Below, piece after piece: positions 3,634-61,580 of a stretch of DNA of 64,000 nt. Position numbers and translations under genes: made by a program. Positions within the stretch are counted from its first letter, which is position 1. Each line of letters opens with the position of its first letter. Source of the DNA: Eledone cirrhosa (taxonomy: Eukaryota); assembly GCA_964016885.1 (NCBI GenBank), contig OZ024749.1:16740001-16804000 (forward strand), read 5' to 3'. The notes below the pieces were generated by a model that was given only the letters and a program-made list of their open reading frames with translations, was not told where the DNA came from and ran no database searches.

Positions 3634-3671
3634 GCCCTGATGAGTCCTTAATAGGACGAAACATTGTCGGC
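3634..3671 (+). ncRNA. Minimal type I hammerhead ribozyme (PLE-A)
   Basis: gcc CTGATGA gtcct-taat-aggac GAAA ca-t-tg TC ggc: canonical core, stems I-III, GUC site. Confidence 0.9.
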
Positions 3672-3900
3672 TAATAAAAACTTTTGATGTATTAAAGGAT
3701 TCTTTGTTTTACTCTCTTAATTTTTCGGCTCTGTTTAACTGCATTGAGCTATACCTTTTACTGTCATTTCTATAATACGAAGAGGGTGTTTGACTCAAAC
3801 ACGCTCCAGTATTCTAATCCTTATATATATATACATATATATATACATATATATACATATATGTATATATATATATGTCCTACACGAGTGAAAGTATAAA

Positions 3901-4137
3901 GAAAAAAAGATGAAATCGAAAATACAACTGGAGTCTTATTTTAAAATAAAAAATATATATTTATTTGGCTCCTTTACCGGTTTCGGAGTTCTTCTGTGAA
4001 AAAACCCACAGACCCTCCATCTCAACTGTACTTTTGAAAAGCAGAAGAACTGCGAAACCGGTAAAGAAACCAAATAAATATATATATTTAAAAGAAAAAT
4101 AAGACTCCAGTTGCATTTTCGAGTTCATCGTTTTTTC
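3901..4137. repeat. Imperfect ~96-bp fold-back of an HHR-bearing pLTR-like fragment between (TA)n tracts
   Basis: 3901-3996 is the approximate reverse complement of 4042-4137. Confidence 0.8.
4031..4066 (+). ncRNA. Type I hammerhead with U3-A8 variant core
   Basis: ctt TTGAAAA gcag-aagaa-ctgc GAAA ccgg TA aag; palindromic stem III. Confidence 0.7.
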
Positions 4138-4199
4138 TATATATATATATATATATATATATATATATATATATATATATATATATATATATATATATA

Positions 4200-57065: not shown

Positions 57066-57074
57066 ATTGGTAAG

Positions 57075-59052
57075 CTAAGAGAGAGAGAGGGAAGGTTTAC
57101 TTACCTCCCGGGTCTTGTGAAGGTCGGGTGGTTCGACCTCCATGGTTGGTGGGGTTTCTTTTGGGAACCCTTTTAAAAGTCTTGATGTGGGTTTCACATT
57201 CGGGTTTCCCACGTCTTGAGGAAAGCTCTCTCGAATTTCTTTGAAAGAATTGAGTGACATTCGGACCAGAAGCAAATCTTCTGGCACGCAAAATGTGCTC
57301 ATTTCAAAAATCTCCTCCTCTGTTTGAATGTCCTCGCTTCGCGCTAAGAGGGCCATCAGTTTATCGTTGGCCCTTCTGACAAGCACGAAGTTTTTAACAT
57401 TTTGTTGGTGTGGTTTTATTTGTTTTCGTTTTGGTGAAGGTGGTGGCGATGGTTTTGGTGGTGTTGTTTCGGGTATGTCTATGTTTGTTGTAGGTGTGGT
57501 GTCTGCAATTTCAGGTATTTGTGTGTTTATTTGTACTTGTGTTTGTTTAGGTTGTTTGCGTTTCGGGGATTGTGGAGGTGGTGTCGATGTTGCTGATGTT
57601 ATTGGGGAAGTGTCTGCGTTAGTGGTGTCTGTATTTTTTGTTGTGTGTGTTTTTGTGTTTTGTAGGGGCTTTTTTTTTTGTGTGAGTTTTCTCTGTTTTT
57701 TTGCACTTTTGGGTTTTCCTTCATCTTCGCTGCTGGAAGACAAAGGGTCTGTGTCTGTGAGTGTCTCTGTGTCTGTGTGTGCGTTTATTTTTTTTTTTTG
57801 TCTATGTATATAGTTGGGGGGAGGGGGGAGTGGGAGAGCTTTCCTCGTTTTCTCCTTGGATTGGTTTTGGTGATGGTGGTGATCCGGCTGCTTTTGATGT
57901 TGGTGTCCGTGTTTTTGTTGATGTTGTTTTTGGTGGTGGTGGTGGTGCAGCTTTCCGTGCTGACACTGGCGTTGGCAACAAAGGAGGTTTGCGACCCCCT
58001 GCATTTTTGCGCTGAGGGCAGAAGGCTTGAAGATGCGTGGCTTCCCCGCAAACGAAGCAGCGTGGCCTTCTTCCGTCAATCATTAGTTGGATTGTTGTCC
58101 CGTCCTGCAGGCGGGCAAAATCTGGGATGTTATTTATATCCTCCGGTTTCATTTGGAGAAGAATCTCCAAATCCATTCCGGACCAGTCTTCTCTCTCTGT
58201 CCTTTTGATGTCCAGGAGGGTGGTGTCTGTCCCCTCCTCGATTACGCATCCCAGCAGCCACCATATGTTCATTCCTGGTGGGATGCTGGGAATGCGTACC
58301 TTCACTGTCCTTTTACCCATATAGGACGGATGCATGATAATGCGTTCCGTTCTGCAGGGGATCACCGAGTGCTTAATAGCGAGGGCCTCGGATTTGAACA
58401 GTACCGAGATGGTACCGAACTGTTTGCCTCTTGCTTTGTACTCTATGTTACTTCCGATGTACTCCAACGCAGCCCCTACCTCTGCTTGGCTCGCAAGTTC
58501 CACTTTTCGTGTCTGCACCGAAATACATCGAAAGAGCACCGTCCTCCTTTGCATGGCCGCTATTGCCTCGTCCGGGATGGTCAGGTTTGCCCAGGACTTC
58601 TCCCGTTTAATTAGCCTCCACGCTTTGGCTAACTGTTCGTCTTTATCGCTAATATCAATATCGATATTCAATAAGCGCTTTGTTTTTGCTGCTGCTGCTG
58701 CAGCAAATGTGGTGTTTCTGATGCTCTTATTGTTGTTGTTGTCATTCTTGCTGTTGCCACCGCCATCCTTGTTTACATTGAAGCTGTCGGTGTTTTTGTC
58801 GTTATTGCTCTGAGTTGTTGTTGTTGTGGTGGTGGTGGTGGTGGTGGCGGCGGTGGTGGTGATGTCGTTTTCAGATGATACAGCTGCTATGCCAGAAGAT
58901 TGTGATGGTAGCTTTTTAGTTTTGCCTTCACATTCAGTAGAGTGGATGACAGGCATGACTGTAGCCGTCGTAGTCGTGGTGAAATCTGCAGTGGCTGCCT
59001 TTAAACTTTTGACCTGAACGTTGTTTACCGTTTCAAGGTCGAAAATTTCCAT
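57075..59052 (-). CDS. Tx1 ORF1 (gag-like, CCHC knuckle), one frameshift near the homopolymer runs at ~57790-57830
   Basis: ORFs 57802-59052 and 57075-58079. Confidence 0.8.
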
Positions 59053-60423
59053 AATTTTCTTTTGGTGGGGAAGCGATTTTTTTTCGAAGATTTTAAAAAT
59101 AAATCTGAATATTCGGGCTTAAAGCCCGAATATTGAGAGGTATCCTCTCTTTAAATCAAGATGTGTACCTTAAGTTTCGTTAATGACAAGAAAATACAAA
59201 AAAAAAGATACTTTAAAAGTGCTTAAAGCTACGAACCGTTTCCCCCGCAGACTTGTCTGTCTTCAGACATGTGCGGCCAATAATAATAATAATAATAATA
59301 ATAATAATAATAATAATAATAGTACACTATAAATAATTATTATTGCACTCGTGCAATGCCTGTGCGTGACGAATATTTTTAAAGTGAGGAAAGACTGTGC
59401 ACTGAGCCAATCCCACTCTCTGAGCGACAGTAGCTATAACCCGAAAAGAAGAAAAGATCAACATCATCGGTAACTACTGAGCCGCAGGTTTTATGTCGGA
59501 GTTAAACCCAATTTCCTGAGATGCCTTCTCCTAGAAGAATGCCCTGACAAGTGCTAGGGGTTCTTCACTCCCAGTGGTTTAACTGCGCGATCGGGCATCC
59601 AGCCCGATTATTTCTGTCCCCGCGCCAAAAAAAAAAAAAAAAATCACTTATTGACACTTATCCGTACGACATACACACACGCGCACACAGCAACACTCAT
59701 ACATACAGACAAACACACACACGCTACTCTACTCACTTACACACACACACACATATATATATATATATTACCGTCATTACTGATACAAGATTACAAGATT
59801 ATGTCAACTGTTGACTTTCAAGAGTTTGTATAGTTGAAGCCGATCGTACTACAGTCCAGTATTATTATAATTGCTTTACAGCATAGAGTCACGGCCCTCC
59901 ACGCTCTGAGCTCAAATCCCGCCGAGGTCAACCTTGCCTTTCATCCCCACGGAGTCAAAAAAAGAGAGTACCAGTTATGCGCTGGGCCAGTCGCTGGATC
60001 CGTGCCAAAAGCAGAAAAATTATTATTAAAGTTGTTTTCTTAAGGCCCGGTCGCTGGTGATGGTGATGGCGGCGGTGGTAGTGGTGGTGGTGGCAGTTAA
60101 TGTTGTTGTTGTATTGTGTGTGTTTTGTTATTTTGAGTTTTTTTTTCTGTTTTTTTTCCCTTCTTTTTCTTTTTTTTTATCTTTTGATGCCGCTGTTGTT
60201 GTTGTTGTAAATGTTCATTTCAGTTCATTCTGAAGCTGTTGTTGCTGTAAACATTAGTGCCGGTGTTGTTGTTGTAGATGTTGGAGTTGAAATCTGGTCG
60301 TTTGACTGAGTGATGTATATACACACATATACATACATACATATATATATAATATATATATATATATATATATATATATATATATATATATATATATATA
60401 TATATATATATATATATATATAT

Positions 60424-61580
60424 ATATTAATACAAAAACAGAGATAGTTTAAAGCTAATCTCTGACTGGTAACCATCTCACTCAACAAACATTAGGTTAT
60501 ATTTTAATATAAACCCAATTTAAGTGTTTGGGGTGCTAACAAAATGTATTATGTGGAAAATCCAGTTGTATTATTTTATGAGATATAATTAAAGTTAAAA
60601 TATATCTCTCTTTCCAAACAATTGTTTCATTATAAGTTTTCTACAAAGTCGGAGAATATTTCCAGTTTATGTAGAAGCCTAATATACATTCATGTAAGAA
60701 TATATTTAGGTGGGCGCTTATAAATCATCAGTGGAAGCCCAATAAACCTTGATATAAGAAAAACATTTCTTACCACGGTTAAAAATCATGTCCGTTAAGT
60801 TGCTCCTTCGCGCATCGAATGACCGGCAAATTTGAAATTCCAGCAGTTTTTGACTGAGGAAGTGTTATAGCGTCACTAAGCGGGAAGGGGAGACAACTAC
60901 GATCCACGAAAGGAGGAAAAAAAAATAATAATAATATACACGCGGGTTAATCAGTTTATTCGAAAACATTATCAATCCAACGTGTTAAGAATTCAATTGA
61001 AATTAAAAAAATAAATATATAGATATTTTCTTAGGCTAAAATCAGAGGTTGTACCTGAATAAGAAACCGCATCTCGTAACCGTAGTAAATACGGAAAGTT
61101 ATGTTTTAAAGGGCAAATGGGAATGTAAATCTCCGGCCGAATTAAGAGTAAAATATAAAGCACACGCGGGTTAATTAGTTATTTCAAAACTAATATCAAT
61201 TCCTCGTGTAAAGAACTCAATCAATTTTTAAAAAATAAATGTATGCATGTAATTATATTATAGGCATATATATATATTTTCTTAGGCTAAAAAACAGAGA
61301 AGTTACAACCAATAAAAACCACAATATCGCACAACAGTAATAAATACGGAAAGTCAAATTTATAAGGTACCTGGAAATAAACACCTCTGGCCAATCAAGA
61401 GTAAAATATTAATACAAAAACAGAGATAGTTTAAAGCTAATCTCTGACTGGTAACCATCTCACTCAACAAACATTAGGTTATATTTTAATATAAACCCAA
61501 TTTAAGTGTTTGGGGTGCTAACAAAATGTATTATGTGGAAAATCCAGTTGTATTATTTTATGAGATATAATTAAAGTTAA
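60424..61580 (-). mobile_element. Non-coding HHR element: 982-nt unit with 175-bp terminal direct repeat, between (TA)n tracts
   Basis: 60424-60598 matches 61406-61580; HHR at 60612-60736; no ORF of 60 aa or more inside. Confidence 0.75.
60612..60736 (-). ncRNA. Type I hammerhead with branched stem II
   Basis: ttcca CTGATGA t-ttataag [two hairpins] cttataa-t GAAA caattg TT tggaa. Confidence 0.8.

Follow-up and report, generated by a model that had tools for sequence, protein, structure and literature searches.

Minimal type I hammerhead ribozymes (HHRs) are known from Penelope-like elements (PLEs), where Cervera and de la Pena (2014, PMC4209133) described a short palindromic helix III, an extra base after A9 or a U3-A8 core in some motifs, pairing of motifs across opposite strands, genomes with many families and a location mostly on truncated ends. 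The Hydra clade of PLEs (Craig et al. 2021, PMC8557442, section 11) is marked by a GIY-YIG endonuclease (EN) at the C-terminus, an RWK-like motif, a DKT motif, a CxCX5C linker and the lack of CCHH, and the Hydra elements listed include a family of Octopus bimaculoides. Retrozymes without long terminal repeats (LTRs) are non-coding tandem units with type I HHRs, and their dependence on PLEs has been proposed (PMC7229834; bioRxiv 10.64898/2026.07.22.740005). PAc, an Anolis element of the Poseidon PLEs (Frangieh et al. 2024, PMC11167929), ends 3′ of its HHR, in a 'tail', at several positions. A 64,000-nt stretch of Eledone cirrhosa DNA (OZ024749.1; hereafter the window, to which all coordinates refer) shares traits with each of these systems, including all those listed above for minimal PLE HHRs. 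An initial annotation had noted about 18 HHRs of about nine families in the window and had stated correctly that such motifs are known from PLEs. The cluster as such is ordinary, known PLE biology, and the HHRs of PLEs, their U3-A8 cores and U.U mismatches, and retrozymes as dependants of PLEs are already published. What is probably new, judging from sequence, is a variant of the HHR, a predicted ribozyme with a giant helix II of 96-116 nt.

The window has a G+C content of 33%, its TA/TG microsatellites total about 11.5 kb, and by rough annotation about 36 kb of it (56%) is PLE-derived. It also contains open reading frames (ORFs) of long interspersed nuclear elements (LINEs; RVT_1, AP endonuclease), GIY-YIG ORF ends, and stretches like short interspersed nuclear elements (SINEs), which we take to resemble those of octopus. 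All 18 annotated motifs have the type I layout on the plus or minus strand, and one more had been overlooked (46448-46518, minus strand). By self-comparison of the window the 19 motifs collapse to about 13 insertions, because PLE insertions repeat their own 3′ end as pseudo-LTRs and inverted copies: A (two insertions), B, C (two motifs), C′, D (three motifs), D′, E (two motifs), G (two insertions), H (three motifs), I and J. The family count is nine, as annotated, and rises to 11 when C′ and D′ are counted separately. Twelve motifs sit in eight ORF-bearing insertions, and all twelve, in all eight insertions, are in the sense orientation relative to the ORF. Elements end about 40-200 nt past the predicted cut, a (TA)5 run follows 14-278 nt after the predicted cut in 18 of the 19 motifs, and each DNA copy retains both flanks of the scissile bond. 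Motif layout, sense strand, near-3′ position, pseudo-LTR and inverted-copy anatomy, TA-run junctions and nesting are seen directly, and we are confident in reading the window as a nested retroelement pile, with 1-3 copies of a 3′-terminal type I HHR contributed by each of about 13 insertions of PLEs or their derivatives.

The descriptor used for detection consisted of a CUGANGA or UUGANAA core, helix II, GAAA, a self-complementary helix III, UH and helix I, with thresholds chosen after the motifs had been seen. It passes 17 of the 19 motifs, namely 16 of the 18 annotated ones and that at 46448-46518. The two failures are the motif at 4345, rightly annotated as degenerate (G15.1, poor helix III), and that at 41076, which is also defective (G17) but had not been flagged. 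Shuffled DNA does not match this count: in dinucleotide-preserving shuffles, 300 within blocks of 500 nt and 300 across the entire window, passes averaged 0.023 and never exceeded 1. The reversed window gave none, and no descriptor match lies inside any LINE ORF of the window, in agreement with the annotated absence of HHRs from AP-endonuclease LINEs. A nearly identical descriptor applied to 77 Hydra-like metagenome loci found 51 motifs, spread over 44 of them, where 20 shuffled sets averaged about 1.05; many of the 33 loci without a descriptor match are short contigs. No match in the window reached an Rfam gathering score, including that of RF00163, a model of 45 positions that long HHR forms cannot fit. 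Below threshold, RF00163 scored 31.7 bits on family A (3631-3675; cut-off 34), the best among the matches listed, and 29.1 bits on the second family A copy (45508-45552). The copies of family H have weak HH9 matches (20.6 bits, E 0.16), and the matches listed in an Rfam scan by E-value (425 rows) are dominated by those of microsatellite to microRNA models. Loose matches at 60850-60975 (plus strand), 10288, 29202 and 16579 were rejected, as loose descriptors yield 1.55 matches per shuffled window.

The motifs of D, D′ and J stand apart in helix II. The span from A9 to G12 is 116 nt in D and 105 nt in D′, both predicted to fold as rods, and 96 nt in the unrelated J, predicted to form a three-way junction; the fold z-scores are -7.2, -5.6 and -5.8, and each beats 200 of 200 shuffles. 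In the D motif (13969-14123, minus strand), which carries U17, helix I spans 10 bp and helix III is an 8-nt palindrome; the motif recurs in the upstream pseudo-LTR (20470-20624, minus strand) and in an inverted copy (24131-24285, plus strand). The D′ motif (46709-46850, minus strand) has A17, and the J motif (60612-60736, minus strand) has U17 and a U.U pair at the base of its branched helix II domain. By comparison, helix II measures 10-25 nt in all 51 HHRs of the 77 Hydra-like loci, none exceeding 45 nt, and is about four times longer in D/D′ and J than in comparable relatives. A looser long-helix search of 265 kb of related loci gave four weak matches, in three loci. Among minimal PLE HHRs a helix II of 7-8 bp is large (PMC4209133), in contrast to D, D′ and J and also to family I, with 16 bp. 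In File S2 of PMC8557442, counted by eye, helix II regions extend to about 25 nt in the Hydra rows and to about 53 nt in one PLE-X from a spike moss; the core-only search in that paper used a 7-17 nt spacer, and half cores were noted at 35-50 nt. The literature searched on long or extended helix II, a scope outside which lay Lunse et al. (RNA Biol 14:1499) and the supplements of PMC4209133 and of the preprint, held nothing relevant; one candidate match concerned an 'extended Helix III' and another engineered ribozymes.

The D and D′ motifs are 82% identical, compared with 56% and 66% for their two flanks. Among 52 pairs of the D/D′ fold, 41 are unchanged, three have one-sided compatible changes, one a two-sided change, five are broken (one being a register shift of the constrained fold) and two are gapped. 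A search of sequencing runs with 17230-20900 gave no RNA run among the matches listed. Contigs of four sequencing runs, with five small-share ones (X9, X11-X14) set aside, were compared with 20060-20900 (1643, 26, 6 and 16 records), and A17 instead of U17 was seen in all four runs. A contig of run X8, from another organism, keeps both motif ends, but 86 letters of its distal rod have given way to 77 different ones. In run X1, loose ends at 20281 and 20304 pass into TA/TG repeats, in agreement with where the inverted copy ends. RNA editing in the long rod was considered and rejected, since only three of 12 variants are sense-strand A to G, which is no excess. The base of the added domain resembles paired TA/TG microsatellite. 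D/D′ and J are probably ordinary Hydra-type cores in which helix II expanded to a folded domain of 96-116 nt that selection maintains. A bolder proposal, which we advance only tentatively and regard as unlikely in its entirety, is that an undescribed class of giant-helix-II HHRs, with a rod some 40 pairs long in D/D′ and a three-way junction in J, arose at least twice in octopod Hydra-clade PLEs, and that the domain is a docking module for the reverse transcriptase (RT) and EN that controls cleavage, either switching it on or delaying it until priming.

Family D occupies a whole insertion (13915-24467), with a 2.1-kb pseudo-LTR, an ORF of 813 amino acids and an inverted copy. On the minus strand lie the 3′ untranslated region (UTR; 13915-17684), the open ORF encoding a Hydra-type RT with C-terminal GIY-YIG (17685-20126), the 5′ UTR and the pseudo-LTR (20416-22552), and the inverted copy follows on the plus strand (22553-24467). 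In the upstream pseudo-LTR the predicted cut is after 20480, about 350 nt before the ATG, whereas the HHR of PAc, a PLE of another clade, overlaps the ORF start (PMC11167929). The protein, read by eye, has RWR, DKT and a CxCX5C linker (CNCRNKANC) and no CCHH; 117 relatives were found at 30-48% identity, and the consensus of 30 of them reads RWK. Like published Hydra elements it combines GIY-YIG without CCHH, RW[K/R], DKT, CxCX5C and (TA)n (PMC8557442). Insertion into (TA)n, a pseudo-LTR and an inverted 5′ copy are all present, but the distance from HHR to HHR is 6.5 kb rather than less than 3 kb as in Hydra elements. The 6.5-kb unit, with 3.6 kb from stop codon to HHR and a 116-nt helix II, differs from the Hydra consensus of 1.1-3.0 kb in PMC8557442. 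The stop codon lies 3572 nt from the core, whereas 23 related loci, chosen among the 44 with an HHR match, have 72-424 nt there (median 158). In A, D, D′ and E the ORF end is 1.2-3.6 kb away from the core, against the same 72-424 nt. Family D is classified by its encoded protein and anatomy as a Hydra-clade PLE in an intact tandem copy. Neither the 813-aa protein nor that of C′ has a Pfam match, and the PDB contains no match to the Hydra profile. Low-complexity inserts rich in Asn, Lys and Thr at about residues 490-580 and 645-670 make the family D protein about 100 residues longer than most relatives. An identical 16-mer, preceded by a CCAAT-like word, occurs at 20324-20339 (plus strand), 24416-24431 (minus strand) and 32821-32836 (plus strand), antisense in the tail and 5′ UTR of D and sense in the 3′ UTR of E, which are PLEs of unrelated clades; it is possibly a promoter or host-factor site.

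The other coding carriers are fragmentary. Subfamily D′ retains ORF fragments (48034-49767) whose protein is 84-89% identical to that of D. Family A is a Hydra-type PLE fragment (about 1-3820, with the EN ending at 1436) and has a compact HHR with a G-C helix II and C17 at its 3′ end (3634-3671, plus strand); the HHR of the second copy (45511-45548, plus strand) has U17 and closes a fragment at 42800-45594. The family C insertion (4199-8904) comprises an inverted copy (4199-5958, minus strand) and an RT/GIY-YIG copy (about 6750-8904, plus strand) with a CX4CX2C linker and a weak Pfam RVT_1 match (E 0.0036). Its HHR has an extra base after A9 and a 6-bp helix II (8710-8754, plus strand), and the degenerate motif with G15.1 (4345-4388, minus strand) belongs to the family C end that is inverted. 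C′, a family about 70% similar to C, has an HHR (39374-39411, plus strand) 281 nt after an ORF (37686-39095) whose protein has its best named match in Octopus vulgaris (64%), and an orphan 3′ tip of C′ without HHR lies within a LINE-tail microsatellite (11779-11917, plus strand). C and C′ share a 25-nt 3′ tip about 150-205 nt past the cut (8880-8904, 4199-4225, 39590-39620 and 11895-11925), a candidate priming signal. Family G has an HHR with G17, predicted to be uncleavable, after a Hydra-type EN fragment (41076-41135, plus strand; EN 40438-40707); its second copy, with A17, has no ORF attached (45956-46014, plus strand).

Family E is a Neptune-type PLE (30640-37563) with an inverted end (30640-31480), a truncated ORF to 32611, and HHRs with U3-A8 cores at 37379-37420 (plus strand) and, in the inverted copy, at 30747-30788 (minus strand; 2-bp helix I). 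To test the link of the E HHRs to the ORF, the inverted-copy microsatellite was aligned with 32870-33500; the score was 606, against 126-314 for four controls, which indicates that an insertion of 3.5 kb later divided the 3′ UTR of E at a TA run. The intervening DNA (33487-37007, about 3.5 kb) is SINE-like and unclassified, and it includes a 220-bp inverted repeat (36048-36267 and 36799-37019, 99%). For family F the initial annotation had made an exception to its rule that every PLE family has an HHR near the 3′ end; F is a weaker exception than annotated, as its 3′ UTR, after a GIY-YIG ORF end (62951-63763), holds a possible damaged motif at 62487-62518 (minus strand). It lies on the sense strand 436 nt past the stop codon and retains helix I, GAAA-U-H and a helix II capped by a GNRA loop, whereas G8/A9 are missing. 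Shuffles of the family F UTR gave 0 of 2000 loose matches, with a pattern that was made to catch the motif and gives 1.55 matches per shuffled window. It is somewhat more likely than not to be the remnant of an HHR.

Among the non-coding carriers, J is the sole one shown to be a non-autonomous, non-coding derivative. It forms an X-Y-X unit between TA runs (60424-61587, minus strand), with a 182-bp direct repeat, a 982-bp period, 1.2 units, one HHR and a longest frame of 61 codons. The first X starts 11-17 nt past the predicted cut, as though the template's 5′ end had been made by the cut of an upstream HHR, although this is a single case. Family H is a retrozyme-like insertion (41828-42596) of one inverted and two tandem ends, with HHRs at 41985-42027 (minus strand), 42107-42149 and 42419-42461 (plus strand), the tandem pair 312 bp apart. 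This period falls within the 170-400 nt range of retrozymes, whereas the J unit differs in its 982 bp and single HHR, and both H and J are known here from DNA alone. The junction of the H units could be a truncation junction. The inversion point falls on a natural hairpin (42053-42105 and 42340-42375) whose 9-bp arms become 19 bp at the junction, which suggests template switching at the hairpin. The family B motif, with a U3-A8 core (4031-4066, plus strand), is carried by a non-coding end fragment of 255 bp (3880-4135), which is accompanied by a partial copy in inverted orientation. The motif that had been overlooked, family I, has an 8-bp helix I, a palindromic helix III and A17 in addition to its 16-bp helix II, and lies in a 235-bp piece between TA runs. 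B, I and the copy at 45956 may be plain 5′-truncated ends. A coding relative (41076) is present only for the copy at 45956, and no match of at least 80 bp joins B (4031), H (42107), I (46448) or J (60612) to an ORF-bearing element of the window.

Helix III is short and mostly palindromic, as annotated: of its ten sequence types, five are fully self-complementary, two have one central unpaired base, one pairs via G.U, and two, those of C and D′, have two mismatches. The extra base after A9 is also found in C′. The pair G10.1-C11.1 is present in A, B, C, C′ and E and is replaced by C.A in D, U.U in H and J, U-A in G and A-U in I. The U.U, C.A and U17 of D, H and J are not new, because the Hydra table of PMC8557442 holds U.U and C.A at 10.1-11.1 and U17 as normal; U10.1-U11.1 occurs also in PMC3088659 and PMC7229834. 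Among the related loci, one Hydra-like locus has an HHR with both a U3-A8 core and a U.U pair (L020:2400), and another has two identical compact HHRs 281 bp apart on the strand opposite to its Hydra-like ORF (L066:2630-2960, minus strand), with a helix II nearly identical to that of family A.

Several observations weigh against an active and selected ribozyme in this pile. With U17 present, A14 is predicted to pair with it, a fold that would lack activity. For several compact motifs (z -0.9 to -1.9) the predicted folding does not surpass that of shuffled sequence, and helix I of families E and C′ has only two contiguous pairs. In Xenopus, eight of nine retrozyme dimers remained uncleaved in vitro (bioRxiv 10.64898/2026.07.22.740005), and therefore many motifs here may be silent; cleavage of the window motifs is a prediction. 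Covariation between D and D′ is thin, though conservation is clear, and the 12 variant letters in or beside the D motif comprise three that keep a pair, three that break one and six in unpaired positions. In the alignment that would have family D interrupt a LINE tail, two of five control microsatellites outscored both LINE tails.

The pile probably arose as follows. Shared (TA)n targeting would gather the elements, because PLE endonucleases favour (TA)n and the insertions bring TA/TG tracts in their 3′ UTRs, leading to self-feeding piles; published Hydra elements lie nearly all in (TA)n (PMC8557442). Reverse transcription would start internally, about 40-200 nt 3′ of the HHR, on RNA that is uncut or re-joined there, because all DNA copies contain the sequence on either side of the scissile bond. 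Variable element ends 3′ of the HHR are expected from internal priming as in PAc, and in the anole PLE HHR cleavage depends on protein and internal priming takes place on unprocessed RNA (PMC11167929). The HHRs would cut slowly, as helix-III dimers or with the element protein, and would trim tandem read-through RNA; PLE HHRs cleave slowly and as dimers, minimal motifs poorly (PMC4209133). Non-coding units such as J, and probably H, would be moved in trans by PLE protein from anywhere in the genome.

The chief competing explanation is that the motifs are conserved because they bind protein or help PLE RNA to fold, or that they are passengers, with negligible cleavage in vivo. Mutants of the anole HHR did not lower insertion in vitro and no RNA reads end at the cut (PMC11167929), minimal motifs cleave poorly (PMC4209133), U17 is common in D and J, and every DNA copy spans the cut site. 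On the other hand, the catalytic residues are kept across 9-11 unrelated families, the swap of C3-G8 for U3-A8 included, and the 5′ end of J, in its one case, lies 11-17 nt after the predicted cut. We consider this explanation doubtful but deserving of serious attention. That the motifs are chance matches in AT-rich repetitive DNA has a negligible probability: the descriptor was tuned after the motifs were seen and none reaches the Rfam gathering score, but 17 passes against a maximum of 1 in 600 shuffles, the fixed strand and place relative to ORFs, and the result from independent Hydra-like loci (44 of 77 with a motif, 51 motifs in all, compared with about 1 in a shuffled set) have already refuted it.

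From local density, structural diversity and the co-occurrence of carriers the initial annotation further proposed a helper-parasite community; if it were local, neighbouring coding PLEs would mobilise the non-coding carriers and co-location would result. Autonomous and non-autonomous carriers do co-occur, coding and non-coding ones being interleaved; H and J have the U.U pair typical of Hydra-clade HHRs, an intact Hydra element lies in the window, and PLE-dependent retrozymes have been proposed (PMC7229834, bioRxiv 10.64898/2026.07.22.740005). Nevertheless, a local community is not supported, since B, H, I and J have no stretch of at least 80 bp in common with the coding elements of the window, action in trans needs no neighbours, the window has a single whole ORF, and HHR-free LINEs are piled in the same tracts. 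It is accordingly improbable, and a nested pile gathered by shared (TA)n targeting is preferred.

The LINEs of the window include an RTE-like ORF with a PHD finger directly after the RT domain (25307-27223, minus strand; Pfam PF00628, E 3.5e-06), which is flanked by a family F fragment (27161-27499), and an AP-endonuclease element with several C2H2 zinc fingers C-terminally (49789-53371, minus strand). A near-perfect palindrome just 5′ of an L1/Tx1-like LINE ORF1 (59105-59140) bears some likeness to the family F motif.

The density of HHRs in the window is one per 3.4 kb. The genomes of Acropora, Xenopus and Schistosoma hold about one HHR per 70-170 kb, these values being genome means obtained with narrower descriptors than the one used here. 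More than 6000 type I motifs in 16 families were counted in Acropora (PMC7229834), about 9000 type I motifs in Xenopus tropicalis (PMC4209133), and about 2000 plus 1300 HHR motifs in Schistosoma. Octopus vulgaris has 30 recently active Penelope families and hotspots of transposable elements (PMC13282606). Standard searches would miss a helix II of 96-116 nt, and consequently the counts of HHRs in invertebrates may be too low, as may claims of their absence. The family D locus, with its open ORF, pseudo-LTR and natural U17/A17 variants, offers a ready system for the question of what HHRs do in PLEs. Giant-helix-II HHRs escape both Rfam and published descriptors; if they truly form a class, PLE families regarded as lacking HHRs or as having half cores may conceal more of them.

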